Assembly: GCA_963662715.1 (NCBI GenBank)
Contig: OY759724.1
Span: 1,410,001-1,442,000, forward strand
Origin: Candidatus Omnitrophota bacterium
GTDB taxonomy: Bacteria; Omnitrophota; Gorgyraeia; Zapsychrales; JANLHA01
DNA length: 32,000 bases
Direction of reading: 5' to 3'
The translations under genes and the position numbers were made by a program. Each line of letters opens with the position of its first letter. Within the stretch, counting starts at the first letter, position 1. Below the pieces are notes generated by a model. The model saw only the letters and a list, made by a program, of their open reading frames with translations. It did not search any database and was not told the DNA's origin. Of this stretch, positions 5,369 through 27,395 are shown one piece after another.

Positions 5369-6091
5369 ATGAACAAACCGAAAAAAATACAAGTGAGCGC
5401 AAGTATTTTGTGCGCGGATTTTACCCGGCTGAAAGAAGAAATTCATAAATGTGAACAGGCCGGGGTGGATATTCTGCATGTAGATGTTATGGACGGGCAT
5501 TTCGTTCCCAACATTACGGTGGGTTCTTTGATTGTCAAAGCGATCCGCCCGCTGACCAGGCTGCCCATTGACACACATCTGATGATTGAACATCCTGAGG
5601 ATTATATTGATGATTTTTGTCAGGCCGGGGCGGATATTGTGTCTGTTCATGCGGAGTGTTACGGGCCGCTAAAAAAAGACTGCCGGAAGTACGGCCAGTA
5701 TCCCAAGGAGGTAGAGAGCATTGATCCGGAGAGAGCCGGGAAGGATATTCAGAAAATCAAAAATCATGGCAAAAAAGCCCATATGGTGATCAGCCCGGGA
5801 ACGCCTTTGTGCGTTGACGCCCTTTTAAATGATTTGGACGGGGTGCTTATTATGTCCGTTAACCCCGGTTTTGCGAAGCAGAAATTTATGCCTTCGGTTC
5901 TTCCCAAGATTCAGCAGTTAAGAAGCTGTTTTCAGGGGGACATTGAGGTTGACGGCGGCATTAATGATGTGACAGCTCCGGAAGTTATTAAGGCGGGGGC
6001 CAATATTTTAGCGACGGCCAGTTATTTCTTCGGCGCCGGTAACCCCAAGGATGCGGTTAAAAGTCTAAAAGGAATCCTTGCTTCAGGTTAA
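5369..6091 (+). CDS. rpe: Ribulose-phosphate 3-epimerase
   Basis: The ORF track starts at 5189 but that extension overlaps tRNA-Leu. The ATG at 5369 (MNKPKKIQVSASILCADF) gives the canonical Rpe N-terminus. Motifs HVDVMDGHFVPN, MSVNPGFAKQKF, VDGGIN. Confidence 0.9.
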   Translation: MNKPKKIQVSASILCADFTRLKEEIHKCEQAGVDILHVDVMDGHFVPNITVGSLIVKAIRPLTRLPIDTHLMIEHPEDYIDDFCQAGADIVSVHAECYGPLKKDCRKYGQYPKEVESIDPERAGKDIQKIKNHGKKAHMVISPGTPLCVDALLNDLDGVLIMSVNPGFAKQKFMPSVLPKIQQLRSCFQGDIEVDGGINDVTAPEVIKAGANILATASYFFGAGNPKDAVKSLKGILASG

Positions 6092-6110
6092 AAGGCTTTT
6101 TTCAGGAAAA

Positions 6111-6139
6111 TTGAAAAAAAACAGATGTTATGCTATAGT
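6111..6139 (+). promoter_or_regulatory. Near-consensus sigma70 promoter with extended -10
   Basis: TTGAAA (6111-6116), 17-nt spacer, TGc-TATAGT (6131-6139), 32 nt upstream of the ATG at 6171. Confidence 0.55.
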
Positions 6140-6170
6140 TTTTGTAGGGATAAGAAAGGACTCCTGAACA

Positions 6171-6407
6171 ATGTTATTTTGCAATCCACGTTATGCGGGC
6201 AAGCCTTCAGCTAAGCGCAGACGACGCGCCCAGACCGCGATAGAATATCTTATTTTATTAGGGGTGGTTACCGCTATTGTTTTGGCAGGATTTAACTATT
6301 TTGTCCCCTTGGCCCGGGATGACACCAACCGCTATTTTCGTGAGGTTCTCCGCGGGGTCTATGGGAACCAGCCTCCCTGGGACCCAAACTGGAATTCCTA
6401 TCCGTGA
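6171..6407 (+). CDS. Small pilin-like protein with Flp / class III signal-peptide motif
   Basis: Basic leader (KRRRRA) followed by QTAIEYLILLGVVTAIVLAG. TAIEY matches the Flp motif, and the Glu falls at +5 of a putative A|Q prepilin cleavage site, followed by a hydrophobic helix. Confidence 0.55.
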   Translation: MLFCNPRYAGKPSAKRRRRAQTAIEYLILLGVVTAIVLAGFNYFVPLARDDTNRYFREVLRGVYGNQPPWDPNWNSYP

Positions 6408-6420
6408 TTTTTTCCCGCAG

Positions 6421-7371
6421 CTATTCTTCTTTTTCCTGCCGGTTATTCTTTCTTTTATCTCTGACAAAATTGCTCTGATGAAAGCTTTTGGCATATTTTT
6501 TTAATTCGGCTCCCAATTCGCTGATTTGTCCCACATGAGTAATCGGGGACACGGCGTTGCTGACAATCCCGATGGATATGGACAGCAATCCGGTTTTTAT
6601 TTCATTCCCCACCCTGTCCCGGCCGACGATATATCCCGCCTTCTTGTCTTCTTCATTGTAAAAATCCGGGGCGGTCGAATCAAACGCATCGACGATTTCC
6701 TGGCAGATATCATCCATGATGTCGTCATCTGCGATAAAAACAAAATCGTCCCCGCCGATATGGCCGATAAAACTTTCTGACCCGGCTTTCTTCCTGACAA
6801 CCCGGACCAGCAGGCGGGCGACATCTTTAATGACTTCGTCGCCTTTTTCAAAGCCGTATTTATCGTTGTAAACCTTAAATTTGTCCAGATCGGCATAAGC
6901 AACGGCGAAAGCTTTTCCGCCGGTAATGTTCTGCTGGAATTCTTCTACGATAGAGGTGTTCCCGGGAAGATGCGTGAGCGGGTTGGCGTCAAGGCTGCGG
7001 ACGGTCCGGCGCAGGATCATCCGTATCCTCGCCACAAGCGAGTCCGGGTCGAAGGGCTTGACGATATAGTCATCTGCTCCGGCGTCGATCCCCCCGATCA
7101 TGTCTTTAACCTCTCCTTTGCCCGTCAACATAATGACGGGGATGTGCTGCAGCAGAATATCTTTTTTAAGAGCCCGGACGAATTCCCGGCCGTTCATGAC
7201 CGGCATCATATAATCGCAGATGATGAGATTGGGGGTTTTTTTTTGTATGATCTCCAGAGCTTGCTTCCCGTTGGAAGCCTGGATGACGTCATAGGCTTCG
7301 GATAATGTCAGGTCGAGGACATCCAGAATGTCCGGGTCGTCGTCAACGGTTAATATTTTTTCTCGCTGCAT
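6421..7371 (-). CDS. Response regulator: receiver domain plus GGDEF-family (nucleotide cyclase) domain with variant GGDDF motif
   Basis: REC: ILTVDDDPD...ICDYMMPVMNG...TGKG...DDYIVKPF. Cyclase domain: ADLDKFKVYNDKYGFEKGDEVIKDVA, HIGGDDFVFIA, LSISIGIV. RBS AAGGAG. Confidence 0.85.
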   Translation of the reverse strand: MQREKILTVDDDPDILDVLDLTLSEAYDVIQASNGKQALEIIQKKTPNLIICDYMMPVMNGREFVRALKKDILLQHIPVIMLTGKGEVKDMIGGIDAGADDYIVKPFDPDSLVARIRMILRRTVRSLDANPLTHLPGNTSIVEEFQQNITGGKAFAVAYADLDKFKVYNDKYGFEKGDEVIKDVARLLVRVVRKKAGSESFIGHIGGDDFVFIADDDIMDDICQEIVDAFDSTAPDFYNEEDKKAGYIVGRDRVGNEIKTGLLSISIGIVSNAVSPITHVGQISELGAELKKYAKSFHQSNFVRDKRKNNRQEKEE

Positions 7372-7404
7372 GATATCTCCTTTGCTTCAGGTAAGGTTGT
7401 AACT

Positions 7405-8892
7405 TTAGACATCCGGGGTGTTCGCCTTCGGCCCTAACGGTAACGTGAAATAAAAACATGTCCCGACGTTCAACTTGCTGGTCACCCAGATTTTTCCTCC
7501 GTGGGCCTCGACAATCTTTTTGACGAGGGCCAGTCCCAGCCCTGTTCCTTTGACATTCTGATTGATCTCATTGTCGACCCGGTAGAATTCCGTGAAGAGT
7601 TTATGCATGTCTTCCTCTTTGATCCCGATCCCCGTGTCAGAAATGCCGACCGTGACTTTTTTTTCGTCACGGGTGACGTTAGCCGTGATCGTCCCGCTGA
7701 TCGGAGTGAACTTGATGGCGTTGCTGATCAAATTGATAAACACCCTTTCGATTTGAGCGGTATCCATAAAGACTTTGGGAAGGGCGTCCGCAAAATCGGC
7801 AACAAACTGGATGTTTTTATCTTTCATCTGCGGGGTGATCAGGTCCTGCACATTGGCTATAATAGACGGAATATCGTGTTCGAGAAATTTCATCTCGACG
7901 CGTCCGGATTCGATCCGGGAGATGTCAAGCAGATTGTTGATGAGCTGCACAAGATTATCCGTGTGTTTGTTGATTTTCCCCAGGCGTTCCCGCACTTTTT
8001 CCGGGACCGCGCCGACTTTCCCTGTCATCAAAATCGAGGCATATCCTTTTATGGATGTTAAAGGGGTCCTTAGTTCGTGGGACACGGCAGAGATAAACTC
8101 AGACTTTGTTTTGCTGATCCGTTTGACTTCTTCCAGCACGGAAGAAAGCTCTTTGGTCCTGTCCTGGACTTTTCGTTCCAGTTCCTGGCTGGAACGGTAA
8201 ACCTGTTCAAATAACCGGGCGTTTGCCAGCGAGTGGCCGATTTGATCCGCCAGGATGGAAATGACTTCCTCGTCCCCCTCGGTCATCGTGTAGGATTCGG
8301 AAAGGTTTCCCGCCATGATGATCCCCAGGACATTTTGCTGGGACAGGATCGGCGTGACAATGAACTGCCGGACGGAAAGGATTTTCGTGAATTCCTCTTT
8401 AACGTCCCTGGGAGAACTGAGGGAGGAGATGATATCCCCCTTCTTGGCGGACTGCAACAACTCCGTCTTGGCATTGAACATATCGACTATGGGTTTAATG
8501 TCTTTGCGGGGGAAGCCGAAGTCCACCCGGGGTTTTAAGGGGCTGGAATTTTTAAAAGTCAGGATAAGAAATTTTTCAAAGCCCAATTCCGTGAGAAAAG
8601 GCTGGTTGAGCCGGTGAAAGACCTCGTCTTCAATAAGCGTTGTGCTGATAAGCCGTGAAATTTTATGCAGGGCATCAAGCCCGTTCAGACGTTTATCGAG
8701 GGCTTCCTGGGCTTTGTTCAGCTCGAGGTCTGTCTGCAGGATGATTTTTGCCTGTTCATCCAGTTCCTGAAAAGAATTGGAAACCTGCAGAAGAGATCTT
8801 TTAAGATTTTTGACTGTCCTTGCGTAGTTGACAAAAAAAAGCGCAAGAATTCCAAAAATGACAAAAAGTAATAAACCGTAAATATGGTGCAT
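7405..8892 (-). CDS. Sensor histidine kinase (N-terminal TM, coiled coil, GAF-like domain, HisKA, HATPase_c)
   Basis: H-box SAVSHELRTPLTSIKGY. N-box LISNAIKFT. G-boxes DTGIGI and GTGLGLALVKKIVEAHGG. Hydrophobic N-terminus LLLFVIFGILALFFV. RBS AGGAG. Confidence 0.9.
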   Translation of the reverse strand: MHHIYGLLLFVIFGILALFFVNYARTVKNLKRSLLQVSNSFQELDEQAKIILQTDLELNKAQEALDKRLNGLDALHKISRLISTTLIEDEVFHRLNQPFLTELGFEKFLILTFKNSSPLKPRVDFGFPRKDIKPIVDMFNAKTELLQSAKKGDIISSLSSPRDVKEEFTKILSVRQFIVTPILSQQNVLGIIMAGNLSESYTMTEGDEEVISILADQIGHSLANARLFEQVYRSSQELERKVQDRTKELSSVLEEVKRISKTKSEFISAVSHELRTPLTSIKGYASILMTGKVGAVPEKVRERLGKINKHTDNLVQLINNLLDISRIESGRVEMKFLEHDIPSIIANVQDLITPQMKDKNIQFVADFADALPKVFMDTAQIERVFINLISNAIKFTPISGTITANVTRDEKKVTVGISDTGIGIKEEDMHKLFTEFYRVDNEINQNVKGTGLGLALVKKIVEAHGGKIWVTSKLNVGTCFYFTLPLGPKANTPDV

Positions 8893-10152: not shown

Positions 10153-10335
10153 GAGCAGACTCCTTTAAAATATTAATATCGATATAACTATAACATATGA
10201 AATGATTTGCTAAATAAGAAAATGGATTTTATTAAGGAGGCAATAATTTTTATTGACCGTGAAATGAATTATGGTAATATTTAAAGTTACAGGTCGCGGT
10301 TCTTCTGAACGGCCTGTTCATTAAGATGAATTTAC

Positions 10336-10410
10336 GGCCCCATCGTCTAGCCTGGTCCAGGACGTATGGTTCTCAGCCATAAAACGCCGGTTCAAATCCG
10401 GCTGGGGCTA
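10336..10410 (+). tRNA. tRNA-Glu, anticodon CTC
   Basis: GGCCCCATCGTCTAGCCTGGTCCAGGAC..., typical tRNA-Glu D-arm. Anticodon stem TATGG/CCATA with loop TTCTCAG (anticodon CTC). T-arm CCGG-TTCAAAT-CCGG. Acceptor GGCCCCA/TGGGGCT plus A. Confidence 0.9.
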
Positions 10411-10411
10411 T

Positions 10412-10451
10412 AAATATAAGGGGACACCCAAAAGGGTGTCCCCTTATATTT
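10412..10451 (+). terminator. Perfect 18-bp hairpin immediately 3' of tRNA-Glu (terminator-like)
   Basis: AAATATAAGGGGACACCC - AAAA - GGGTGTCCCCTTATATTT. Confidence 0.6.
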
Positions 10452-10923
10452 AAAACTCCAACTCTTTGACCGGCAATCGGAGATATCGGCGACCGAGCGT
10501 TGCGAGGCAATTCAGAAAAGGTCATCCGAGCTGAGCGAGGAAGTGGTTGAGCAGGGGCGAAACCATTCCAAATCCGGCAGTATAAAAGGGGGACTCTTTT
10601 GAATCCCCGTTATTATTTCTTCTAACTCAGAAATTTTCCTTTTTGTATCCCCAAAACCATGGAAATATTACAGGAAAATAGATTTTTTGCGAGGCCTTTT
10701 CAAGAGTGCTTGTAATTCAAAAAATTTTATATTTATGTTAAGAAAAGTCAGATTTTGGTCGTATCGGGCCATTGACAGAGAGAAAAATAAGGATGATACT
10801 GTATGATATTTCCAGGTGTTTTGAAAGATCGGTAATATTATGCGTCGTAACTATTTAGCAGTATAAAAAAGGACAAAAGAGATTTTTTATTCAATAAAAA
10901 CCGGATATTTGGAAAAAAACACA

Positions 10924-11000
10924 CTATAACAATACATCACGATATCACCCAATAACAAAATTCAATATTAATAAGTACGACGTAGAAGAAATTGTTAGAC
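10924..11000 (+). repeat. attC-like recombination site (site 0) ending in core GTTAGAC
   Basis: Starts CTATAACAAT (inverse-core-like) and ends AATTGTTAGAC. TAACAAT/ATTGTTA pair as the base of an imperfect palindrome. GTTAGAC fits GTTRRRY and lies 7 nt before the ORF at 11008. Confidence 0.5.
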
Positions 11001-11007
11001 GAAGAAA

Positions 11008-12021
11008 ATGATGAAAAAACTCATAGAAGATTTTCAAAAAATAGCCACCACGATAACAGAGCTAACAAAAATATCTGACTTAACAGCAGAGCATGATATT
11101 TTATCAAATGCTGAACGACATATCGAAATAACAGGCTATGACAATTGGGATGGCGGGTCAGATATCCACACAGTATACTTGCAAATACCCATCGAGCTTT
11201 ACTCTAAATATGAGTCAAATTTAGATAAAATAGAAAAGACAATTAATTCTAAGTTTCAACCCATTCTTCGCAATTATCCGAATGAGTATATAAACGATGT
11301 TGTAATTACACCGCGCCTTGTACAAGCGAAAGCTTCTGTTCAAACAGAATACACTCAACAAGAAAAACATGCATTTATAAGCTATCAGACAGCTGATAAG
11401 CATGTTGCAGGAAAAATAAAACAATTATTAGAGGGTATTGGTATTGAAGGTTTTTTAGCACATGAAGACATTGACGTTTCATTAGAATGGCAAGATGAAA
11501 TATTAAAAAATATGGCAAAATCTTCTCTATTTATTTGCTTGTTAAGCAGTAATTATTTAAATTCTTTTTGGTGCATACAAGAATCGGGAATGGCAAGGTT
11601 TAAGAACTCTACAGTCATCCCGTTGACATTAGATGGCACTGTTCCGCCCGGTTTTATTTCAAAGTATCAAGCAGTAAGAATTGATCCTGAAAGACCTAGA
11701 ATACATGATCTTATCCCTGGATTGATGAAATATAATAAATTTGATGTCTTAGAAATAATTATAGAAGTAATTGGATCGTCGAGAAGTTTTCGTGGCGCAG
11801 AGTCTAATTTTGAATTGATTTTGCCATATTTAAATGATTTAACCGAGAAACAGGCTAAAAGTTTGCTAGAAAAAATAAGACAAAACAATCAAGTGCATCA
11901 TGCAAGTCTTTGTGCAAATGAATACATCCCAAAAGTGCTTAAGAAATATGGCAATTTAATCTCTGAAGATGACTTGGAGTTTTTAAAAGATAGATGTAAA
12001 GAATATAATGGAGACGTCTAA
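11008..12021 (+). CDS. TIR-domain protein (unknown N-terminal ~115 aa, TIR, helical C-terminal ~120 aa)
   Basis: TIR core at residues ~120-210: HAFISYQTADKHVAGKI...LFICLLSSNYLNSFWCIQESG...VIPLTLDG. The SxWCxxE motif carries the conserved catalytic Glu (E192, nt 11581-11583). Confidence 0.8.
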   Translation: MMKKLIEDFQKIATTITELTKISDLTAEHDILSNAERHIEITGYDNWDGGSDIHTVYLQIPIELYSKYESNLDKIEKTINSKFQPILRNYPNEYINDVVITPRLVQAKASVQTEYTQQEKHAFISYQTADKHVAGKIKQLLEGIGIEGFLAHEDIDVSLEWQDEILKNMAKSSLFICLLSSNYLNSFWCIQESGMARFKNSTVIPLTLDGTVPPGFISKYQAVRIDPERPRIHDLIPGLMKYNKFDVLEIIIEVIGSSRSFRGAESNFELILPYLNDLTEKQAKSLLEKIRQNNQVHHASLCANEYIPKVLKKYGNLISEDDLEFLKDRCKEYNGDV

Positions 12022-12090
12022 CAACTCAATCCAGCGGACCTCCGGGGCAGCTGCGCGCCCCTTCGAGCCGCTGATTTCGTTGCGTTATAG
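12016..12090 (+). repeat. attC-like recombination site (site A)
   Basis: GTCTAAC (12016-12022, fits RYYYAAC and overlaps the stop codon) is the exact reverse complement of GTTAGAC at 10994. The GC-rich imperfect hairpin pairs CAGCGG/CCGCTG and GGGGC/GCCCC, with bulged bases. It ends GTTATAG (12084-12090). Confidence 0.6.
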
Positions 12091-12111
12091 GAAATAAATA
12101 AAAAAGGAGAA

Positions 12112-12786
12112 ATGCTCATGTCTCGAAGTCCATATAAAATGCCTTCTGTGTTTGTAGCCTGCCCTTATGATGAAAAGAAATTTAAATTTTCTTCGTTTAA
12201 GAAAGAATTGGCGTCCCTTCCTTTTAGCATCGAATATGCTGATACAAATTTGGAAACAAAGCACTTAATGGAAAAAATAAAACGTCTTATAAAGGCTGCA
12301 GATTTTTCTTTCTTTGACTTGTCATCTTGGAATCCAAACGTTGCACTTGAATTAGGTTTAGCAGAAGGAGTTAAATCTTCTTATTATATTTTGGTAAACT
12401 CGAAGATGAACAAAGATGTTCCTTCCGATATTAAAGGGATTCAAAGAATAGAATATTCGTCCCTTCAAGGAAATGAGAGAAGTCTCCGTTCCCAAATAAT
12501 TCAATATTTCTTTAAAAAGAATTATTCTCTGACAAAAGATTTGTGGACAAAATTGTCTCGACATAAAAATGCTCATAAAATATTTGATTTTGGGTTGCGT
12601 GTTCTCGCCTTTCTACGAGATCACGATGCCATAGAACATGCCGATTTTAAAGAAATTTCTAGAGGACTATATGTTAGGCTTGAGGATCAGGAACATGTTA
12701 TAACAACTCTTATAAATATAAAGGCGTTAAAAAAGGCCTATGGTCGCGAAGAATACTTATTAACAAAATCTATATATAAGAAATGA
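12112..12786 (+). CDS. TIR-like / nucleoside 2-deoxyribosyltransferase-like domain protein with a possible C-terminal winged-helix
   Basis: SVFVACPYD...KIKRLIKAADFSFFDLSSWNPNVALELGLAEG resembles the (V/I)F(I/V)...AD..I.D.....NV.(F)ELG.A.G signature of COG4271-type TIR-like and deoxyribosyltransferase-like folds. The AAGGAGA RBS at 12104-12110 favours the second ATG (12118) as the start. Confidence 0.45.
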   Translation: MLMSRSPYKMPSVFVACPYDEKKFKFSSFKKELASLPFSIEYADTNLETKHLMEKIKRLIKAADFSFFDLSSWNPNVALELGLAEGVKSSYYILVNSKMNKDVPSDIKGIQRIEYSSLQGNERSLRSQIIQYFFKKNYSLTKDLWTKLSRHKNAHKIFDFGLRVLAFLRDHDAIEHADFKEISRGLYVRLEDQEHVITTLINIKALKKAYGREEYLLTKSIYKK

Positions 12787-12788
12787 CC

Positions 12789-12830
12789 CTATAACAATTC
12801 ATGTGTTCTATCGTAGATGAAAATTTATAA
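12789..12830 (+). repeat. Short, degenerate attC-like site (site B)
   Basis: CTATAAC (12789-12795, 3 nt after the stop) is the exact reverse complement of GTTATAG at 12084. AATTCAT pairs with ATGAA(AA)TT. The expected GTT core is TTTATAA (12824-12830), so the site is probably inactive. Confidence 0.4.
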
Positions 12831-12833
12831 AAA

Positions 12834-14465
12834 ATGACGTCACCTAAAAAGCGCGCTCAAATACTGCAAGATCATCTTAAAAAAGGTAATACTTTTTTCC
12901 CTCCTTTTACTTTTAAAGAAGGCATTGGTCGGTTTGACGAAATCAACTGGCGGGCAGACTTTGTTCCAGAGCTAATTTGGATTGCATTATTGATTGAGGA
13001 ATATGGATTCGATAAATCAAAAAATTTAGCCTGTGCTTTGGCAATATTGTCAATGCAACTCCGTCAAACTGAACAACTACCAGATTTTGGAATGGTATCA
13101 GCCTATGAACCACTAGGGGAAACGACAAAAAGGAATATTAATAAACACTTAGATTCAAAGGGAGTGTTGCAAGAAATATCAAAGCCATTGGTGCCATTGG
13201 TAACACTCTATCCTGATTGCCCATTAAGTTTTTTGATCGAAGGAGAAAAGAATAGATGTTCTGTCGATCACGCCAGCACAAAGGTTGCTCCAATTCTTGA
13301 AGAATGTCTTTACCGTGGTGAAAAATTGCCAACTCTTGTTCAAGCTGTTTATTATGAGCTGTCAATCGCTTCCGGAAAATTGAAATTCGTTGCTCCATTA
13401 GGCCCTCACAATACAGATCCTATTAAAGAATACCCCAATACAGACGAATCAAAAAGGTTGGCTAGCATGCTTAGGGCCAACGCTTGTCATATGACAGCAA
13501 TGGGCCATTCAAAGAAATGGGTTCAATATTTCTGGAGAAAAGGTCGTGATATTGGCCCTTGTGTGCCTAAAAAATCTTCTGACCTTCATCTGAATGATTT
13601 CCCTCAAGAATTTATTTTATACAACACAGAATGTTTCAAACAATATCATGATGGTTGTAATAAGCTATGGGAATATATCGAGCGAAACTATGTGATTGAT
13701 TTTTACTCTCCACTGCGTGACGAAATTCGCCTTAGTCTATTTTGCCGTATTTATCGCCTTACTGTCCATGTCGTAAGTTTTATCCCTAATTGGACAGAGG
13801 ATATAGCTGAAATATTTTTGCGAATGATTATAGAATCATATATTTACTATATGTGGTTCAAAAAAAATGGCACGGAAGAATCATATGAGAAATTCTATGT
13901 GTATGGCCTTGGGCAACAGAAATTAAGAAAAGAACACATATCAAACTATCTCAAGAAGCAAGGTGTTCCCGAGGAGGAGATAGAACAACAGAATCCCGGT
14001 CTCTCATTTCTTAAAAATCATAAAATGGATGAATTTATTCCAGTGAATATTGGAAATCCGCTGGACAAAAATCTTCGAATTATTGCAGAGGAGGCAGATT
14101 GCCGTGAAATTTACTCATTAATTTTCTCACCAGCGAGTTCTGCTATCCATGGAATGTATGATTCCTTAGAAAGGTTCTATTTGAAAACATGCCTAAATCC
14201 ATTCCATTGTTACCATAAAGTTCCATATTATTGGTCCAAATCAGCTGTGTCGAGTTATGGGGTGATTAACTGCCTTGAATTCACTGACTGGATTTTTGCT
14301 GATTTGGTGAAGGATTTAAATGGTAAATTGCCGGATAAAATGCCAGGTGAAATCTATATTGAGAACCTAAACGACAATAAGGCGCTCGAGGAGTTTACCA
14401 AAAGAGATGATGTGCAGGAGTGGATTAATTTATCTGCACAATTTAGAAACAATGTAAAGGAGTAA
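12834..14465 (+). CDS. Hypothetical protein, 543 aa, no domain recognised
   Basis: Long uninterrupted ORF in an AT-rich context, on the same strand as its neighbours and 4 nt after site B. Predicted mostly helical. No catalytic motif I can name and no obvious SD. Confidence 0.6.
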   Translation: MTSPKKRAQILQDHLKKGNTFFPPFTFKEGIGRFDEINWRADFVPELIWIALLIEEYGFDKSKNLACALAILSMQLRQTEQLPDFGMVSAYEPLGETTKRNINKHLDSKGVLQEISKPLVPLVTLYPDCPLSFLIEGEKNRCSVDHASTKVAPILEECLYRGEKLPTLVQAVYYELSIASGKLKFVAPLGPHNTDPIKEYPNTDESKRLASMLRANACHMTAMGHSKKWVQYFWRKGRDIGPCVPKKSSDLHLNDFPQEFILYNTECFKQYHDGCNKLWEYIERNYVIDFYSPLRDEIRLSLFCRIYRLTVHVVSFIPNWTEDIAEIFLRMIIESYIYYMWFKKNGTEESYEKFYVYGLGQQKLRKEHISNYLKKQGVPEEEIEQQNPGLSFLKNHKMDEFIPVNIGNPLDKNLRIIAEEADCREIYSLIFSPASSAIHGMYDSLERFYLKTCLNPFHCYHKVPYYWSKSAVSSYGVINCLEFTDWIFADLVKDLNGKLPDKMPGEIYIENLNDNKALEEFTKRDDVQEWINLSAQFRNNVKE

Positions 14466-14541
14466 TAAATAACAACGGAAAGAATCATCTATCAACGGCA
14501 TTAAGAGCGACGGCAAAAAATCGCCGAAAGATAAATAAAAC

Positions 14542-14943
14542 ATGAATATTTTTAAAAATGAAATTTATTGTGTAGTTTTTCCTGAAGAATTTCGATTTAA
14601 GTCATATGGGAAAGAGAAAAATCTAAAGACATTTATTGATGTCTCGGAGGGAAAGAATCCTAAGGTAATCGCTGTAGGTGAAGATGTTTCTCATCAAGAA
14701 CCATTTAATAGAGTGTATTTATTTAAAACTACTGAAAATAATTTAAAATTAAAGAAAAGTGAATATTTAACTGCCTATTTTAAGTATGCTTTTAAAAGCG
14801 TTTTTAATAAATTTGTTGTAGTAAGACCAACAATAATTTTTGAGAACACATCCAGCTTGAGTTCAATCTTAGGCGGTTATGAGAAAGATATCCTTGAGCA
14901 CGCATCATTGAGTGCAAGTGCTTTAAAATGTATATTTAAATAA
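14542..14943 (+). CDS. Hypothetical protein, 133 aa
   Basis: ORF on the same strand, 76 nt after the previous gene, with a double stop TAATAA. No recognisable motif. Confidence 0.4.
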   Translation: MNIFKNEIYCVVFPEEFRFKSYGKEKNLKTFIDVSEGKNPKVIAVGEDVSHQEPFNRVYLFKTTENNLKLKKSEYLTAYFKYAFKSVFNKFVVVRPTIIFENTSSLSSILGGYEKDILEHASLSASALKCIFK

Positions 14944-15126
14944 TAAACGGCTAACAAGTCATCCATGAAAACAGTCATCTGGTCAAGCATAAAATAGAAA
15001 GGCCAAATCATCCATTCGCGCTATATTCCCCCAAAGGACTTATGCGCACAATAGCGTATTATGACAGGGCGTGCCAATCACTACAACGGCCTTAAATATG
15101 CCAGAGTTGTTAACAGCATCACCCAT

Positions 15127-16134
15127 TTATACTGACCGATATTTATACTCACAGTTGTTTTTCAAAACAGCAAAAACAGATTTTAACAGCTTATGAGCAA
15201 CAGCAACTATAGCGACACCGTAATCTTTTTTAGTTCGAATCTTCTGAAAATGAGTTTGTAAATATATATCACGGCGCACAGCGGTTTGAGCCGCTTCGAC
15301 AAAAGCAGTGCGTAAGTATTTATTGCCATCTTTAGTAATAGGGCCTGAATAATAGCTTTGACCTGATTGATGGACACGAGGAACAATGCCGGCGTAACGG
15401 GCAAGTTTATGCGCATTCTTAAAGCGGGAGATGTCACCGATTTCAGCCAGGATGACATGAGCAAGAATAACCCCTATACCAGGGACAGTGTAGAGTAACC
15501 GAGCCTTAGAATCGACTTTGATGTTCAGACGGAGACGAGAATCGATTTTGTAAATATGCCGGGAGAGAATATCGATAAAGGAGAGATAATCGGCAATCAT
15601 GGAAGAATAAGGTTGCCGTAAGGATAATTGATTTAAGAAGAGTTTGCCGGAAACACCGAAGAGGTCGCTGAAAGAATGCTGAATACCCTGATAATCAAGG
15701 ATAGCATGAATACGATTTTTGAGGCTAGTGCGAATGGCGATCAAACGGTGGCGATACCGCATCAAAGCACGAGCATCACGATGAAAGCGGGAAACACGGT
15801 AAGCTTTGGGCAAGAGATCGGCTCTCAAGAGGTCAGCTAAAACAGAAGCAGAGATTTTATCGGTTTTAATGCGTTGTTCGGCAATAGCCTTAGTTCGCGC
15901 GGTATGAGCGAGAGAAACATCTAAGCCGGCCTCTTCAAGCAAGTCACCGAGCCAAAGGTCAAAGCCAGAGGCTTCCAGTGCGACAGAAGAGTTATGAGGA
16001 AGGGCTTTAAAATAATTTTTCATAGCATCTTTCTGAAAGTGATATAATTTTGTTTGATCGATGCGGTTGCCATTCTGATCTTTAACGACAACATACGAAT
16101 ACTTTTTGTGTTGATCGATTCCGATGTAATACAT
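15127..16134 (-). CDS. IS110-family transposase/recombinase
   Basis: MYYIGIDQHKKYSYVVV (DEDD RuvC-like N-terminus), ...ALEASGFD..., C-terminal YAGIVPRVHQSGQS / ITKDGNKYLR (IS116/IS110/IS902 domain). Start moved to the ATG at 16134, which has an AGGAGG RBS; the track's 16179 start lacks one. Confidence 0.9.
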   Translation of the reverse strand: MYYIGIDQHKKYSYVVVKDQNGNRIDQTKLYHFQKDAMKNYFKALPHNSSVALEASGFDLWLGDLLEEAGLDVSLAHTARTKAIAEQRIKTDKISASVLADLLRADLLPKAYRVSRFHRDARALMRYRHRLIAIRTSLKNRIHAILDYQGIQHSFSDLFGVSGKLFLNQLSLRQPYSSMIADYLSFIDILSRHIYKIDSRLRLNIKVDSKARLLYTVPGIGVILAHVILAEIGDISRFKNAHKLARYAGIVPRVHQSGQSYYSGPITKDGNKYLRTAFVEAAQTAVRRDIYLQTHFQKIRTKKDYGVAIVAVAHKLLKSVFAVLKNNCEYKYRSV

Positions 16135-16330
16135 ACGTGCCTCCTTTCTGGAAGGTTGTGGTTTTTGGCTTAAAATCATTATACGCCTTCCAGAGGCACG
16201 TTTTCATACTATCACTACAGCGGTGCGCTTCGGCACCTTCGGCAGCCTCAAGACCCAGTGGGCGTGTGGCGTATCTCCTCAAAAATTGGACTGAAAGTAA
16301 TTAGGGAGACAAAATAGCTTTTAATATAAA
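16135..16330 (-). ncRNA. Candidate IS110 bridge/guide RNA region in the 5' non-coding end
   Basis: Dense secondary structure. ACGTGCCTC..CTGGAAGG (16135-16156) pairs with CCTTCCAG-AGGCACGT (16185-16200) and occludes the RBS. A second hairpin is GGTGC-GCTTCG-GCACC (~16223-16238). The position matches the IS110 subgroup, where the ncRNA lies upstream of the recombinase. Confidence 0.35.
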
Positions 16331-16351
16331 AGGTCACCCGGGGCTATATAT

Positions 16352-16385
16352 CCCCCTGCAATTGATCAATTGCAGGGGGTTTTTG
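16352..16385 (+). terminator. Perfect 28-nt palindrome plus T5 (plus-strand intrinsic terminator-like)
   Basis: CCCCCTGCAATTGA|TCAATTGCAGGGGG followed by TTTTTG. Sits at the AT-rich/GC-richer transition. Confidence 0.55.
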
Positions 16386-16458
16386 TTTAGGGTAAAATGG
16401 GAAGAAATCAAATGAACCGGCAGGGTTTTATCGTCTCGCAATAATATACAGCAATAGC

Positions 16459-16887
16459 ATGGGTTTCCTTAAACATAGTTTTTCCAAGAACAACCATAAA
16501 ACAAGAAAGTTGAATTCCCAGGGCCCCTTGTTTTGGAGTCAAGTGTTCTTCATTATGGCGGTCATTGACGTTTCTATCATTTTCTTCAGGAAAAGCTGGA
16601 GCGCTGAGGCCGCTATCACGCCGTCCATTGAGGTCTTTCTGGGCATCACGATTTTGGGTTTAAGAAAATATGAAAAAGTCGTGAGGGTCTGTTTGATATG
16701 CCTGTTTTTTCTTACCGGTATCATCATGTTGCCCGGGGGGGATTTAAGGTGTCTCAGGGACTTGGGAGAAGAGGGGGTGTTCCTCCGGGCCCTGGTTTTA
16801 TTTTTGGGGGAATTTATGGCCGCGGCCGGCATAGCTGTTTTACTTAAGTATTCTCGGAGATCAAATTACGGCGGCACGTCCGGTTAA
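16459..16887 (+). CDS. Hypothetical membrane protein
   Basis: Three to four hydrophobic segments (VFFIMAVIDVSIIFF, VFLGITILGL, VCLICLFFLTGIIML, LVLFLGEFMAAAGIAVLL). Weak RBS and uncertain start. Confidence 0.4.
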   Translation: MGFLKHSFSKNNHKTRKLNSQGPLFWSQVFFIMAVIDVSIIFFRKSWSAEAAITPSIEVFLGITILGLRKYEKVVRVCLICLFFLTGIIMLPGGDLRCLRDLGEEGVFLRALVLFLGEFMAAAGIAVLLKYSRRSNYGGTSG

Positions 16888-16914
16888 ATCAACAGTATTA
16901 GAAGGGGATTTGTC

Positions 16915-18606
16915 ATGATAGAAGATGTTAAATTGAAAGAATGGTATCAAAGCAATAAAGAAAATGAAAGGAATGGTCTGGCAAAGATATTAGACGTGGA
17001 GTATGCGCATATAAAGCTGCGGGAGGAAGATGACCTGTATATTACTGCTGAAGGGTTGGCCTTTATCGATAATTTAATGCCGGAGAATTTTTGGACCGAC
17101 AAAGAATGGGTGAGGGAGAATTCAGAGCGGTTGTCGGGGACAAGCACTGTTTATAAGATCAGGACCAAAAAAGTGGGCGGTAAGCAGATAGAGCTTGTCG
17201 TTAAATGGAACCGGATGGGCCAGGATGTGCCCGGGGCGGAAGACTGTGAAGACTTGATGAGCGCTGAATTTAACAGCCCTTTTGAGGAATTTTCATTGGT
17301 TTTTGAATTAAGGAAAATAGTTCATGATTCAATGGAGAATATTTTTATACAGAGGCCTTTGGCGATATTCGTTCCTTCCGAATCTGTCGAGTTGTGGCAG
17401 AGCGGCAGAAAAGAGTATAAGATGCGGAACAAGATCGAGTCGCACAAGGATATTATGTTGGACATGTTCCGTTCTTACGCGGTTATATATTTATGGGTTC
17501 CGGGGATCGATTTAACGCAGGCCCTGAAAAAGGATTCTTTAAAGGAGAAAGACCTGAAACTGTTGACTCGGGATGCGCAAAAGAAAATGTTCGAAAACGG
17601 TTATGTGGTTAAAGATCATAAGCCCCAGCATGTCATTGTTAACTCGGGGAAGGAAGGAGGCTTGAAAAGAAACGCAAACGGGGAAATAGAATATGCTTTG
17701 GTTGATTTTGAATTGCTTCAGCGGACTTTCGAGAAGGAAGAAATGGTTAAGAAGAACAAACGCACGGATTATTTAAAAAGACAAAAAGACAGGTTTAATA
17801 TAGAAACCCCGAAGAAGTTTTACCCGTATTTGAACCACGTGAGTATTTTTGATGTCGCGTATATCTTTGGGCATGTCGAAAGCACGAAAGGAAGATTGTG
17901 GGTTTTGGGAAAAGACCCCTGTTTGTTCGACTATTTCCTCCCGGAACGATGGGAGCAGAGGCCCAGGACGAAAATATCGGTTCTCAATGCCATGTATTAC
18001 ACGATTTCCAAAGATAATATCCACCTTGTCTGGAAAGTGTCCAAGGTCGGCTCCAGGCCCGACATGGATCCTTTTAAAGAAGATGAAAAGAAAATACTGG
18101 ATTATGGCTATAACAGCCCTTTTGAAGAAGCTGCGATAGCCCTTGAACTTGAGCAAAAAGGAATACCCACGATCAGTCCGAGAGCGATATATATGACTTC
18201 GAATGAAATAGACATGTCGGCACATTTGCAGGATAATTCGCGTTACGATAATCATAAAAATTTGTTTGATCCTGACGGGGCGGCCATATTAAGAAAAGAC
18301 CGCGATTACATAAGTATTTGGGGATACTGGCGCGGACCCATCGAAAAACTGGCTCAAAGAGACGAAGATTATCATGAGGGGATGAATATTTTAAAGGCAT
18401 ACAGAGAAAGAATTATCAATGAACAGCAATATTTAAACCTGCTGCAGACAGCAAAACAAAGATTGCTGCATGCGGGCTTTGAGGACCTTAATCTTAGGGG
18501 AAACCATTTGATGATTTCTTTTGACAGTCACAATAATCTTATTATGGATGATTCAGGCCTGCCTGAAATTAGAATATGTAATTTTGAGTTTCTTAAGAGA
18601 ATTTAA
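16915..18606 (+). CDS. Protein with two tandem RIO/Kdo(WaaP)-like atypical kinase-fold modules
   Basis: Internal duplication: FNSPFEEFSLVFELRK ... DHKPQHVIVN ... LVDFELL, and YNSPFEEAAIALELEQKGIPT ... EDLNLRGNHLMIS ... ICNFEFL. These resemble the N-lobe helix, catalytic loop and DFG-equivalent of Kdo/RIO-type kinases. Confidence 0.4.
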   Translation: MIEDVKLKEWYQSNKENERNGLAKILDVEYAHIKLREEDDLYITAEGLAFIDNLMPENFWTDKEWVRENSERLSGTSTVYKIRTKKVGGKQIELVVKWNRMGQDVPGAEDCEDLMSAEFNSPFEEFSLVFELRKIVHDSMENIFIQRPLAIFVPSESVELWQSGRKEYKMRNKIESHKDIMLDMFRSYAVIYLWVPGIDLTQALKKDSLKEKDLKLLTRDAQKKMFENGYVVKDHKPQHVIVNSGKEGGLKRNANGEIEYALVDFELLQRTFEKEEMVKKNKRTDYLKRQKDRFNIETPKKFYPYLNHVSIFDVAYIFGHVESTKGRLWVLGKDPCLFDYFLPERWEQRPRTKISVLNAMYYTISKDNIHLVWKVSKVGSRPDMDPFKEDEKKILDYGYNSPFEEAAIALELEQKGIPTISPRAIYMTSNEIDMSAHLQDNSRYDNHKNLFDPDGAAILRKDRDYISIWGYWRGPIEKLAQRDEDYHEGMNILKAYRERIINEQQYLNLLQTAKQRLLHAGFEDLNLRGNHLMISFDSHNNLIMDDSGLPEIRICNFEFLKRI

Positions 18607-24179: not shown

Positions 24180-26117
24180 ATGAATAAAATAAACAGTGAT
24201 CAGCTATTCGTGGCAACTAAAAACAAACCCAATTTAACCCCGACTTTAGGCCCCATTAAGGATTTGGAAGCTTATGTGTCTTCTGACTGGTGGCAGAAGA
24301 TTTTCAATGCGAATTATTTAAAAACGGACGCCGATATCGTTAATGATCCCCGTATAACAAAACAGGAAGTTACCCAGTATTTAAGCATCCTGAACTGTGA
24401 ACGGGACAGCCACATATTGGATATATGCTGCGGACAGGGCCGGCATGTTTTGGAGTTCCATAAGCGGGGATTCCGTAACACGACCGGCTTGGACCGTTCC
24501 CGTTTTCTTATACAGAAAGCGCGGACGGCTGCCCGTAGAGATAATTTTGACATTAAGTTTAAGGAAGGGGATGCCCGTAAACTTCCTTTTAATGACGGTT
24601 CATTTGATTTTGTGACTTTGCTGGGAAACAGTTTCGGTTATTTTGAGACGGTTTATGATGATATCCGTGTCTTGAAAGAGATTTTCCGTGTTTTGCGCCC
24701 TTGGGGAAAAATCCTTATTGATGTCACGGACGGGGAGTTTATGATTAAAAACTTCCGGGACCGGAGCTGGGAGTGGATCGATAAAAATCATTTTGTCTGC
24801 CGGGAACGCTCGCTGTCCTCTGACAAGAAAAGGCTTATTTCCCGGGAGATTATTTCCAATGCTCAAAAAGGAGTTCTTACTGATCAGTTTTACGCCGAAA
24901 GGCTTTATTCCCAGAATGAGTTGTTGCAGCTGCTTTCGGATGTCGGCTTTAAGGATGTGATGTGTCATGGTCAGGTGGACACAAAGACGAGCCGAAATCA
25001 GGATTTAGGGATGATGGAAAAGCGGTTGATCATTACCGCGACGGTCCGGAAAGAATGGATCCAAAGACCAACAACAAAGCAAATAAAGTTAAGACAGGTT
25101 GCTGTTCTTCTGGGGGACCCTTCCAAGGAAGACAAATTGAAGCCGAAAGCGGTGTTTGATGATGATGACCTGTATACGATTGATTGTTTGAAAAATGTTT
25201 TATCGAAAATGGATCAATACCATTTTATTTATTTGAATAACCACGAACAGATGGTGCAGGATTTGTTGCGGATCAGGTCGAAAATAGATTATGTCTTTAA
25301 CATTTGTGATGAAGGATATAATAATGAAGCCTCAAAGGAGCTTCATGTCCCGGCCCTCTTGGAGCTGCTTGGTGTCCCCTACACCGGAAGCAACCCGCAA
25401 TGTCTGGCTTATTGCTATGATAAATCTCTGGTCAGGGGTGTTGCCCGCGAGATGGGCGTTGGGGTGGCGGAAGCCTTTTTTATAAAACCGGAAGACAATG
25501 TTTATGAATTAAAAATTTCTTTCCCGGTTCTCGTGAAACCTAATTTCGGCGATTCCAGCCTGGGGATCACGCAAAAGAGCTATGCTGAAAATGTTGAACA
25601 GTTGTCCGACGCTATCCAGAATATACGAGATAATACGGGGTATGACAAACCGATCCTGGTGGAGGAATTCCTGCCCGGGGCTGATTTGAGTGTGGGCATT
25701 ATCGGCAACCTTAATGACGGGTATGCGATCCTTCCTGTCATTGAAGAGGATTATTCGAGCCTTCCGGCAGGGTTCCCTCATATATGCGGGTATGAAGCGA
25801 AATGGCTACCGGGATCCCCTTACTGGCAAATAAAATCAAAACCTGCTGTGCTGAGCGATAAACTGCAAAAATATATTGAAGAAGCGTGCCTGAGGCTTTT
25901 TGAGCGTCTTGATTGCCGGGATTATTGCCGTTTTGACTGGCGTCTTAACTCTCGGCAGGAGCCAAAATTGCTTGAAGTTAATCCCAATCCGGGGTGGTGT
26001 TGGGACGGGCATCTGGCGAGAATGTCCAAGATGAAAGATATGACATATGCCATGATGATTGAGGAAATCCTTAAAGCCACGGAAAGAAGACTGAATTTAA
26101 TCGGGGGCAATGCCTAA
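24180..26117 (+). CDS. Fusion protein: class I SAM-dependent methyltransferase (N) plus D-Ala-D-Ala-ligase-like ATP-grasp (C)
   Basis: MT motif I ILDICCGQGRH, post-I GLDRS, FDFVTLLGNSFGY. ATP-grasp: FPVLVKPNFGDSSLGI, ILVEEFLPGADLSVGIIG, CRFDWRLNSRQEPKLLEVNPNPGW. Confidence 0.75.
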   Translation: MNKINSDQLFVATKNKPNLTPTLGPIKDLEAYVSSDWWQKIFNANYLKTDADIVNDPRITKQEVTQYLSILNCERDSHILDICCGQGRHVLEFHKRGFRNTTGLDRSRFLIQKARTAARRDNFDIKFKEGDARKLPFNDGSFDFVTLLGNSFGYFETVYDDIRVLKEIFRVLRPWGKILIDVTDGEFMIKNFRDRSWEWIDKNHFVCRERSLSSDKKRLISREIISNAQKGVLTDQFYAERLYSQNELLQLLSDVGFKDVMCHGQVDTKTSRNQDLGMMEKRLIITATVRKEWIQRPTTKQIKLRQVAVLLGDPSKEDKLKPKAVFDDDDLYTIDCLKNVLSKMDQYHFIYLNNHEQMVQDLLRIRSKIDYVFNICDEGYNNEASKELHVPALLELLGVPYTGSNPQCLAYCYDKSLVRGVAREMGVGVAEAFFIKPEDNVYELKISFPVLVKPNFGDSSLGITQKSYAENVEQLSDAIQNIRDNTGYDKPILVEEFLPGADLSVGIIGNLNDGYAILPVIEEDYSSLPAGFPHICGYEAKWLPGSPYWQIKSKPAVLSDKLQKYIEEACLRLFERLDCRDYCRFDWRLNSRQEPKLLEVNPNPGWCWDGHLARMSKMKDMTYAMMIEEILKATERRLNLIGGNA

Positions 26118-26351
26118 ACAGAGTTTCTCGCCGGGAGGAAGGCCAAGGGCGGCCTGAATTGTCTGGTCATCGGCTGTCCCGTTGTATCTGAAAAAAGTCC
26201 TTATATCACATCTTTTAAATATATGATCCTGTCGACAGGTATCTGTTTTTGTGAAATTTTGGACTTTTAAAAAATTGGGCGACAGTGTCTTTTGCCCGGT
26301 ATTTTTTGTTTTATTCTCTTTCGATAATCGAAAAAAAATTTTTGAAAGATG

Positions 26352-26380
26352 TTGACAAGATATGCGAAAAATGATATATT
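26352..26380 (+). promoter_or_regulatory. Consensus-like sigma70 promoter with extended -10, upstream of the MerR-type regulator
   Basis: TTGACA (26352-26357), 17-nt spacer, TGa-TATATT (26372-26380). Flanked by two AATCGAAAA copies (26326-26334, within the palindrome TCGATAATCGA, and 26383-26391). Confidence 0.6.
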
Positions 26381-26407
26381 TTAATCGAAAAGAGGAGGCG
26401 TAGCAGC

Positions 26408-26719
26408 ATGGTTGCCAAGAACAAAAAAGACCACAGTTTTGAAGAGGTCCATATAGATGCGGATATTCCAATTTATACAACGGGCGTTGTCTGCAAGATT
26501 TTAAGCATTCCTATTTGGATTTTAAAACAGCTAGACAGGGAAGGGATTGTTTCTCCCCCTAGGGATAATCAGGGAAAAGCAAGATTATATTCCAAACGGG
26601 AGTTAAAAAAGGTGCAGCATTGCTGGTTTTTTATGAAACAACATGATGTTAAGATTCCGGGATTAAAGATTATTTTAAAGATGGAAAGAGGAATATTTTA
26701 TAACAATAGAAAAGAATAA
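26408..26719 (+). CDS. MerR-family transcriptional regulator, HspR-like by context
   Basis: HTH IYTTGVVCKILSIPIWILKQLDREGIVSPPR...RLYSKRELKKV. Located directly upstream of the Hsp20 genes. RBS GAGGAGG. Confidence 0.7.
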   Translation: MVAKNKKDHSFEEVHIDADIPIYTTGVVCKILSIPIWILKQLDREGIVSPPRDNQGKARLYSKRELKKVQHCWFFMKQHDVKIPGLKIILKMERGIFYNNRKE

Positions 26720-26738
26720 AAATTTTTTTGTCAAAATA

Positions 26739-26765
26739 TTAGCACTCCGTCATGTCGAGTGCCAG
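26739..26765. promoter_or_regulatory. CIRCE-like inverted repeat (HrcA operator type)
   Basis: TTAGCACTC-N9-GAGTGCCAG versus consensus TTAGCACTC-N9-GAGTGCTAA. The left half is perfect and the right half matches 6/9. Confidence 0.6.
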
Positions 26766-26809
26766 TGCGGTAAATTAATCAAGAATGGACAGGAAAGGAG
26801 GTGAAGTAA

Positions 26810-26887
26810 ATGAAACTGTTGGAGAGATTTATCGTTACAATTACAGACTTAAGAGACTTTATAAGGAAAAGGTTCAAAACAAAATAA
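26810..26887 (+). CDS. Possible 25-aa leader peptide (MKLLERFIVTITDLRDFIRKRFKTK)
   Basis: AAAGGAGGTGA RBS 7 nt before the ATG. Lies between the CIRCE-like site and the first Hsp20 gene. Confidence 0.25.
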   Translation: MKLLERFIVTITDLRDFIRKRFKTK

Positions 26888-26921
26888 AAAATATCAAATT
26901 ATGAATCAGGAGGTGATCACA

Positions 26922-27395
26922 ATGGCACTTGCCCCTTATAGAAAAGATAATTGGTGGGTCGATCCTTTTTCGGAATTAGAAAATATCCAGAAACAGATGA
27001 ACCAGCTTTTTAACTTTTCACTTTCACGAACTCCCTGGGGGGAGGCGACCCTGCTGGGTGGTCAATGGGCTCCTCCAGTGGATGTGTATGATTCCAAGGA
27101 TAATTTCTTGGTTAAAGCCGAGTTGCCGGGCTTAACAAAGGAGGAAATAGAAGTTTCCATACAGGATAATAATCTTATCTTGAAGGGAGAGAAGAAAAAG
27201 GATGTTGAGATCGATGAGGAAAATTACTTTAAGACAGAAAGATTTTACGGGAGCTTTTTTAGAACAATTCCTTTGCCGTCGGAAGTCGAGGTGAATAAAG
27301 TTGACGCAAGATATCAGGACGGTGTGCTCACCTTGACATTGCCGAAGAAGGAAGAATCTAAACCGAAACAGATAAGCATAGATGTTAATCAATAG
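26922..27395 (+). CDS. Hsp20/alpha-crystallin small heat-shock protein
   Basis: Start moved to the ATG at 26922 behind GGAGGTGA. Alpha-crystallin domain VDVYDSKDNFLVKAELPGLTKEEIEVSI...GVLTLTLPK. Confidence 0.9.
   Translation: MALAPYRKDNWWVDPFSELENIQKQMNQLFNFSLSRTPWGEATLLGGQWAPPVDVYDSKDNFLVKAELPGLTKEEIEVSIQDNNLILKGEKKKDVEIDEENYFKTERFYGSFFRTIPLPSEVEVNKVDARYQDGVLTLTLPKKEESKPKQISIDVNQ

Follow-up and report, generated by a model that had tools for sequence, protein, structure and literature searches.

Four co-directional genes beside a tRNA-Glu gene in an Omnitrophota genome: probably an islet of independent defence modules rather than one system

The 32,000-nucleotide stretch of DNA analysed here (the window: positions 1,410,001 to 1,442,000 of contig OY759724.1, assembly GCA_963662715.1, Candidatus Omnitrophota bacterium) contains an AT-rich islet immediately 3' of a tRNA-Glu(CTC) gene. 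The islet carries four open reading frames (ORFs) on the plus strand within 11008-14943, here called genes A to D, followed by an insertion sequence of the IS110 family (Table 1). Gene A encodes a TIR protein, gene B a protein with a predicted DNPH1-like fold, gene C a distant relative of DitA from the Aditi defence system, and gene D a small protein that may resemble the N-terminal part of MreB. An initial annotation, made from the letters alone, had taken the four genes for a single undescribed anti-phage system. They do not behave as one system: when the ORFs of 106 related loci, 690 kb in all, were each searched with profile hidden Markov models (HMMs) of the four families, no second locus emerged in which even three of the families occur together. 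The interval is probably a horizontally acquired defence islet made up of four evolutionarily independent modules.

Table 1. Features of the islet and its borders (positions within the window).
Feature	Coordinates	Strand	Evidence and remarks
tRNA-Glu(CTC)	10336-10410	+	ARAGORN; Rfam RF00005, 57.4 bits; left landmark of the islet
Hairpin AAGGGGACACCC-AAAA-GGGTGTCCCCTT, then T-rich run	10415-10450	+	Inverted repeat I1, 27 nt, 89% complementary
Non-coding leader, ca. 560 bp, GC 0.36	10451-11007		No ORF of at least 60 aa
Gene A, 337 aa	11008-12021	+	Pfam TIR_2, 5.1e-17
Gene B, 224 aa	12112-12786	+	ORF list; public source starts at M3, 222 aa
Gene C, 543 aa	12834-14465	+	PADLOC DitA PDLC03826, E 1.8e-28
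Gene D, 133 aa	14542-14943	+	ORF list; family by HMMER search
IS110-family transposase gene	15127-16179	-	NF033542 transpos_IS110, 229 bits (cut-off 140)
Perfect terminator-like palindrome CCCCCTGCAATTGA/TCAATTGCAGGGGG, then T run	16352-16387	+	Inverted repeat I21, 14 nt, 100% complementary

The drop in GC content starts at the hairpin of 10415-10450, right beside the tRNA-Glu gene, for which this hairpin probably serves as terminator. Over the ca. 4.6-kb block 10411-15060 the GC content is 0.351, versus 0.452 ± 0.020 (minimum 0.417) in windows of the same size elsewhere in the 32 kb, and the GC content at third codon positions is 0.21-0.33 in genes A to D versus 0.48-0.61 in the flanking backbone genes. 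The compositional shift next to the tRNA gene, the four co-directional genes, the TIR gene and the TIR-like or deoxyribosyltransferase-like gene that the initial annotation had described are all borne out. Its return to backbone composition at about 16.4 kb is not: the AT-rich block ends at ca. 15.06 kb, and what lies between there and 16.4 kb is IS110, with a GC content of 0.43 similar to that of the downstream backbone. The transposase that it placed after the four genes is present, albeit on the minus strand, and the 543-aa protein that it listed as unknown (gene C) matches DitA of Aditi. Two hallmarks of an integrative genomic island are present, tRNA adjacency and compositional shift, while two others were not found: neither the ORF list nor Pfam contained an integrase-like ORF, and a direct repeat of the 3' end of the tRNA-Glu gene occurs neither within 10200-16900 nor across the whole window.

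Upstream of gene A, the leader is unusually long for a stretch free of ORFs; it may represent the remnant of a gene or a regulatory region. Its best plus-strand promoter-like site lies at 10772-10800 (promoter scan, 10/12 matches); it also contains a GC-richer piece at ca. 10460-10570 and a terminator-like hairpin on the minus strand (10608-10589). The intergenic gaps are short (90 bp between A and B, 47 bp between B and C, 76 bp between C and D), and the scan for terminator-like sites found none on the plus strand between 10450 and 16185. On both counts, co-transcription of genes A to D is likely in this genome.

By its sequence, gene A is a genuine TIR protein with a conserved, predicted catalytic glutamate. 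Its residues are arranged in a variable N-terminal domain (1-112), the TIR domain (ca. 115-235) and a conserved C-terminal domain (236-337). The glutamate lies in the motif CIQESG (E192) and, like some 40 further positions, is conserved to at least 95% among 120 homologues. The TIR domain and the C-terminal domain form the family core of ca. 218 aa, while an N-terminal extension like residues 1-112 of A is found in only about 18% of the same 120 homologues. The only sequence match in the PDB is SpbK (9phb), with a phmmer alignment limited to the TIR domain; E192 of A is aligned with the glutamate of the SpbK motif CLNEMG, numbered E192 in both proteins. SpbK is an NADase triggered via the phage portal that makes canonical N1-cADPR (cyclic ADP-ribose), and its E192, for which an E192A mutant was made, is among the modelled residues contacting NAD+ (Mishra et al., PMC12847820). 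Gene A also matches PADLOC ThsB1 (9.8e-8) and NCBIfam ThcB4 (36.8 bits, far under the cut-off of 220). Its C-terminal domain matches the C-terminus of the PADLOC PD-T7-3 model over ca. 72 positions (E 2.2e-9); residues 1-112 alone gave no PADLOC match. Among its family's neighbours are a HEPN-like gene and DUF4238, which flank one locus, and another locus adjoins smpB. Scans of viral contigs returned four loci for the A family and nothing for the families of B, C and D. Close homologues of A (62% identity; L106, 458-907) and of B (64%; L022, 9188-9280) lie within a few kb of smpB, a classical integration hot spot, which is consistent with A and B genes travelling as island cargo.

The protein encoded by gene B is predicted to combine a DNPH1/nucleoside 2-deoxyribosyltransferase/PCTIR-like domain (ca. 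10-125) with a helical domain ending in a β-hairpin (ca. 125-220) that is winged-helix-like. The AlphaFold model, built on 55 homologues, reached a pLDDT of 86.3 and a pTM of 0.86. Foldseek placed human DNPH1 (8rps_B) at the top of its PDB matches (E 1.7e-4, TM 0.72 normalised to the target), followed by others including rat Rcl and the purine 2'-deoxyribosyltransferase PTD (1s2l), with TIR-STING lower in the list. The residue E80, in the motif NPNVALELGLAEG, is invariant in the 55 aligned sequences, whose mean column identity is 60%. Comparison by hhalign sets E80 opposite the DNPH1 nucleophile E104 in an alignment that is not significant by itself (E 0.094), and no PDB entry was matched by sequence; the likeness to DNPH1 is therefore drawn from the predicted structure. 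Pfam CAP12-PCTIR_TIR (PF10137) matched the motif region only (7.8e-5, 23.1 bits, under the curated cut-off of 24.7), PADLOC gave weak matches to TIR-effector and PDC-S35 models (best 4.6e-5), PHROG 3634 was matched as well, and the sole sequence hint of the winged helix was a Fur DNA-binding domain (E 0.67). Pfam, NCBIfam and PADLOC all lack a model dedicated to this family, which comprises at least 179 protein clusters and at least 189 metagenome relatives.

The surroundings of the B family are mixed. The 150 nearest neighbours include AbiU, SIR2, UzuA, GajA/Old, RmrA, ThsB_TIR (twice), AIPR, PIN_10, caspase and DUF4231, but also transporters and metabolic genes. The closest homologue (80% identity) lies between DUF3800 and DUF2971 genes, and one at 64% identity adjoins HTH-Peptidase_M78/Phd genes, lying after HTH-Peptidase_M78. 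We tentatively consider, without attaching great weight to it, that this may be a widespread unnamed family of single-gene defence proteins, each an N-glycosidase with a winged-helix-like sensor, or that B, without a TPR domain, serves at this locus as an effector under the control of the adjacent TIR protein. As a single-gene system B would hydrolyse NAD+ or destroy a phage-specific (modified) deoxynucleotide.

Gene C is, as judged from homology, a form of the Aditi protein DitA from a clade that lacks DitB. Residues 10-470 match positions 5-448 of the 486 in the PADLOC DitA model, i.e. near full length, and Pfam recognises DUF5677 (1.4e-18). We take PDLC03826 to be the first Aditi gene because of the neighbouring PADLOC names, ZacB (Azaca) and DzbB (Dazbog), and of the supplement of Millman et al. 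2022, which lists the tested Saccharibacillus kuerlensis proteins as DitA (483 aa) and DitB (372 aa). The relation to that validated DitA is distant (21.6% identity over 430 aa, tblastn 5e-7). No protein encoded in 11008-18606 matches the PADLOC DitB model, and both published DitB sequences, searched with tblastn and phmmer --max against the window and the 18 C-family loci, produced no match below E 0.3. Every neighbour in the C-family loci, as well as genes B and D, was tested as a candidate for DitB and rejected.

The AlphaFold model of C is all-alpha (pLDDT 77), and Foldseek found no meaningful fold match for it in the PDB (best E 1.6). Two domains can be distinguished, an N-terminal helical domain (ca. 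5-243) and DUF5677 (ca. 273-478). They are defined by the most distant relatives, L014-L018, where two overlapping genes encode the parts equivalent to residues 5-243 and 273-478 of C (L014, 287-1800; L015, 9779-11568; L016, 764-2324; L017, 9968-11435; L018, 9923-11531). The N-terminal half encoded in L015 is extended at its N-terminus by an HTH-like part with matches to the PADLOC models RmrA, PDC-M64 and capH. Four residues of C, S435, H439, H458 and H461, are invariant across the fused and split forms. Genes found near members of the C family include MmeI restriction-modification, HmaB/HmaC, a pAgo-like gene, PDC-S15, a PLD restriction enzyme with a methyltransferase, HEPN and MazE/Fic. In one of these loci (L012, 58-8293) an HmaB-like methyltransferase and an HmaC-like ATPase flank two genes, one DitA-like and the other pAgo-like/SIR2-associated, which gives the impression that an Hma system received them as an insertion or recruited them.

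Gene D has no match in Pfam, PADLOC, NCBIfam or PHROGs. An exhaustive HMMER search nevertheless collected 122 representative clusters at E <= 1e-3, with proteins of ca. 135-150 aa, which indicates a real gene family. Its profile is colinear with the first ca. 130-146 residues of MreB: it matches residues 2-128 of 4cze (E 0.003), two members match Pfam MreB_Mbl (0.011), and hhalign against residues 1-146 of a manually entered E. coli MreB sequence gave a probability of 75.8% (E 2.3e-5). The phosphate-binding (ATP-binding) motif DLGT of MreB is absent from the family. We regard the apparent MreB-N-terminal-like nature of D as a lead rather than proven homology. A few of the family members P0275-P0396 are fusions; P0301, for instance, has an N-terminal IS200-like Y1 transposase domain, and P0314, P0322 and P0324 carry extra domains.

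Loci for the co-occurrence test were anchored on three of the families. Eighteen loci (L001-L018, about 14 of them independent) were anchored on C, drawn from 31 word-sharing homologues (11 by exact look-up, 7 by genome scan); 80 + 5 were anchored on B, the 80 having been fetched from among the 189 metagenome relatives; and 9 were anchored on A. Outside the window, two of the four families were found together in none of the 106 loci except one (L038), where a B-family gene (6001-6660) is followed by a DitA-like gene (7086-8813) on the same strand, ca. 430 bp apart, with 42% and 25% identity to genes B and C, respectively. The 80 metagenome loci of the B family contain no relative of A, none of D and one C-like gene, and the largest set of shared neighbours covers 4 of ca. 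58 loci. Searches by hmmsearch, together with 150 hhalign runs, revealed no A-type TIR protein beside B-family genes. Among the five independent A-family contexts no neighbour recurs, nor does any of them hold a relative of B, C or D. Likewise, tblastn and an all-against-all comparison of neighbours found none common to the C-family loci besides the C gene or its halves; upstream of the C homologues with 78% and 75% identity lie an unknown 207-aa protein and a 572-aa TPR protein, respectively. Homologues at 63-80% identity have unrelated neighbours.

At the right end, the transposase gene retains both the N-terminal and the C-terminal IS110 domains (Pfam PF01548 DEDD_Tnp_IS110 and PF02371 Transposase_20). 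The element probably spans ca. 15060-16340, with ends deduced from composition. A bridge RNA was sought without success: there was no Rfam match, and the 5' non-coding region folds no better than shuffled sequence (z = -0.27). Several sub-threshold Rfam matches (MicX, NsiR1 and others, including a weak NsiR1 match at 16352-16387) were set aside as probable noise. The palindrome at 16352-16387, with which the right coordinate of the initial annotation (16385) coincides, is the sole strong plus-strand terminator-like site after the tRNA hairpin in a scan of 10300-16900, so IS110 probably inserted between gene D and this terminator. The palindrome is possibly the islet's original terminator, now cut off from gene D by IS110, in which case the islet may originally have ended there, with IS110 inside it.

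Directly beyond IS110 lie two ORFs, 16459-16887 (142 aa) and 16915-18606 (563 aa), without a match in Pfam, PADLOC, NCBIfam or PHROGs. The larger one has an intermediate GC content (0.41), is situated within a strong positive GC skew and may itself belong to the accessory cargo. Some 10 kb downstream of the islet, at 26001-27000 of the window, the GC content falls once more, to 0.34-0.40.

Taken together, the foreign composition, the four separate families, their failure to co-occur elsewhere and their variable, defence-rich neighbourhoods lead us to favour, with reasonable but by no means full confidence, a defence islet acquired horizontally beside tRNA-Glu, whose four modules did not co-evolve as a system and are probably single-gene defence modules. 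This keeps one part of the initial annotation, a compositionally foreign, tRNA-adjacent islet, and gives up another, that the four genes make up one undescribed defence system: one protein belongs to a named system (C, as DitA of Aditi), the four families essentially never co-localise, and the neighbours of the A, B and C families are nonetheless often defence genes.

On this defence-islet reading, A would be a stand-alone SpbK-type TIR NADase. A phage component would be recognised through its N-terminal domain, its PD-T7-3-like C-terminal domain or both, which would bring the TIR domains together and thereby assemble the active site around E192; NAD+ would then be cleaved to ADP-ribose or cADPR, aborting the infection. 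That A is inactive until clustered by a phage component is proposed by analogy with SpbK, the observations on A itself being the conserved glutamate and the stand-alone context. B would act as a stand-alone N-glycosidase of the DNPH1/deoxyribosyltransferase/Cap12-PycTIR superfamily with E80 as nucleophile, gated by its winged-helix-like C-terminal domain, and would deplete either NAD+ (as Cap12/PycTIR) or a (deoxy)nucleotide needed by the phage (as DNPH1/MilB). C would be a DitB-less DitA, a helical two-domain protein with a Ser/His cluster (S435, H439, H458, H461), and D a small MreB-N-terminal-like protein within the islet. The modules would have been acquired independently and brought under one leader and one terminator, and the insertion of IS110, which parted gene D from the terminator at 16352, would have come later.

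Several points weigh against this reading. The defence roles of B and D are putative, being drawn from their fold and their neighbourhoods. In an E. faecalis screen (10.1101/2025.10.07.681051) a solo DUF5677 ORF was tested and did not count among the genes that protected, so that DitA without DitB may lack activity or have only a narrow range. Sampling of the A family is thin (five independent loci) and many of the metagenome contigs are short: flanks of at least 1 kb were available upstream in 43 and downstream in 41 of the 80 B loci. The window offers neither integrase nor attachment (att) repeats to explain how the islet was acquired. In addition, tight co-directional packing is also expected of a real operon, a TIR gene beside a gene for a DNPH1-family hydrolase resembles type VIII Thoeris, and the order B-then-DitA recurs once, in L038.

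That A to D form one undescribed four-component defence system, as first proposed, would account for their common direction, the short gaps, the lack of an internal terminator-like site and the foreign composition that they share. We nevertheless find it hardly credible, given that no second locus among the 106 holds even three of the families, that closely related homologues sit in unrelated contexts, and that C already belongs to a named system family. The most serious rival, although still an unlikely one, reduces the system to A and B, a two-gene Thoeris-like module of a type VIII variant without TPR, with C and D as bystanders: the TIR protein A would sense infection, and a cADPR-type signal would activate B to degrade a nucleotide pool. 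Type VIII Thoeris couples a TIR protein making canonical cADPR with ThsI, a fusion of a 'CMP hydrolase' (MilB/DNPH1 family) and TPR (10.64898/2025.12.03.692087, a preprint of December 2025), and the pairing of A and B recalls it in several respects: SpbK, the nearest solved relative of A, makes this same signal, the predicted fold of B is DNPH1-like and contains an invariant glutamate, and the two genes are neighbours in the same direction. A ThsB-like TIR gene is moreover found immediately beside a B-family gene in L031. That gene is convergent with B, hence non-operonic, and it is the one located out of the two ThsB_TIR among the 150 B neighbours; A-family TIR genes occur in 0 of the 80 B-family loci, B relatives in 0 of the 5 independent A-family contexts, and no TIR gene lies beside the homologues nearest to B, with 80% and 64% identity. 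B also lacks, in Pfam and in its model, the TPR domain that is proposed as the cADPR sensor.

A partnership of B and C, in which the nucleoside 2-deoxyribosyltransferase (NDT)-like B stands in for DitB in the DitB-less clade, draws on the same-strand order of the two genes, seen twice (47 bp apart in the window, ca. 430 bp apart in L038); as both families are uncommon, two adjacencies exceed genome-wide chance. It is very unlikely all the same, since B relatives are missing from all ca. 14 independent C-family loci, those with 75-78% identical C genes included, and a C relative from 79 of the 80 B loci, while a single coincidence is explicable by the tendency of both families to gather in defence islands. 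Finally, the islet might have no immune function at all and consist of decayed mobile-element cargo (e.g. addiction, toxin-like or nucleotide-salvage genes) retained by chance at the tRNA gene. The missing integrase and att repeat and the inserted IS all suggest decay, B, D and a DitB-less C are without experimental backing, the negative screen of the solo DUF5677 ORF points the same way, and several neighbours of the B family are transporters or metabolic genes. Such a fate is rather unlikely for four intact ORFs of well-conserved families, with the catalytic glutamate of B invariant and defence genes recurring around the A, B and C families. Furthermore, partner-less TIR proteins with a conserved catalytic glutamate are established NADase defence proteins.

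The main value of the analysis lies in a correction: a tight co-directional cluster with the appearance of a defence locus is not automatically one system, and one of its 'unknowns' already had a name. Beyond this, the DitB-less DitA clade, fused or split, defines two domains and a mutable, invariant Ser/His cluster in this protein of Aditi, a system that is mechanistically unexplained; the DNPH1-like, winged-helix-like family of B emerges as one without a conserved partner but with frequent defence-gene neighbours; and the family of D adds small proteins that recall the N-terminal third of MreB. If B, D or the DitB-less C do protect against phage, this would mean new effector chemistry or a handle on the mechanism of Aditi.

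Among known systems, Aditi is the one to which gene C relates. C aligns with the S. kuerlensis DitA over 430 residues, carries DUF5677 and is all-helical, without a fold that would mark it as an enzyme, which agrees with what has been reported on Aditi. It differs in its low identity to the validated protein (ca. 21%), in its form (a fusion of 543 aa, replaced in distant relatives by a pair of overlapping genes, with variable neighbours) and in the absence of a DitB homologue from both the window and the 18 related loci. Gene A is comparable to SpbK of Bacillus subtilis ICEBs1, likewise a single-gene TIR protein with an extra N-terminal domain, no dedicated adjoining effector and the catalytic glutamate at the aligned position. 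The similarity is confined to the TIR domain: the N-terminal domain of A has no detectable relation to the 4-helix bundle of SpbK, most members of the A family have no N-terminal domain at all, and the conserved C-terminal domain of ca. 100 aa is absent from SpbK. That domain is shared with PD-T7-3, reportedly a single-gene defence of E. coli, of whose model the other ca. 340 positions are unmatched, so that A is no overall PD-T7-3 homologue.

The TIR gene A directly precedes gene B, whose catalytic domain is predicted to fall within the DNPH1/MilB/deoxyribosyltransferase superfamily, and this order recalls type VIII Thoeris, with ThsI compared by description; B differs in lacking TPR, and the A and B families are not together elsewhere. 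Thoeris types I-IV employ a ThsB-type TIR protein with the catalytic glutamate that is present in A, whereas none of the seven proteins of 11008-18606 is a ThsA-type effector (SIR2-SLOG, Macro or transmembrane) by Pfam, PADLOC and NCBIfam. The same scans agree with the initial annotation that SIR2, Macro, CD-NTase, STING and Argonaute partners are missing, and, there being no CD-NTase or pyrimidine cyclase, they set the locus apart from CBASS and Pycsar. The N-terminal domain of B has the predicted flavodoxin-like fold of Cap12/PycTIR (PF10137), DNPH1 and the deoxyribosyltransferases (TM 0.6-0.72 normalised to DNPH1) and a motif of the N-V-x-x-E-L-G type with the invariant glutamate at the nucleophile position; the C-terminal winged-helix-like domain has no counterpart in DNPH1 or the deoxyribosyltransferases. 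The locus is thus neither a complete Aditi (no DitB) nor Thoeris I-IV (no ThsA) nor CBASS/Pycsar (no cyclase). It is an ordinary example of a known pattern, the patchwork defence islet at a tRNA hot spot, and its unusual parts are the DitB-less DitA clade, the MreB-fragment-like D and, as the most novel of them, the unannotated DNPH1-like family of B.

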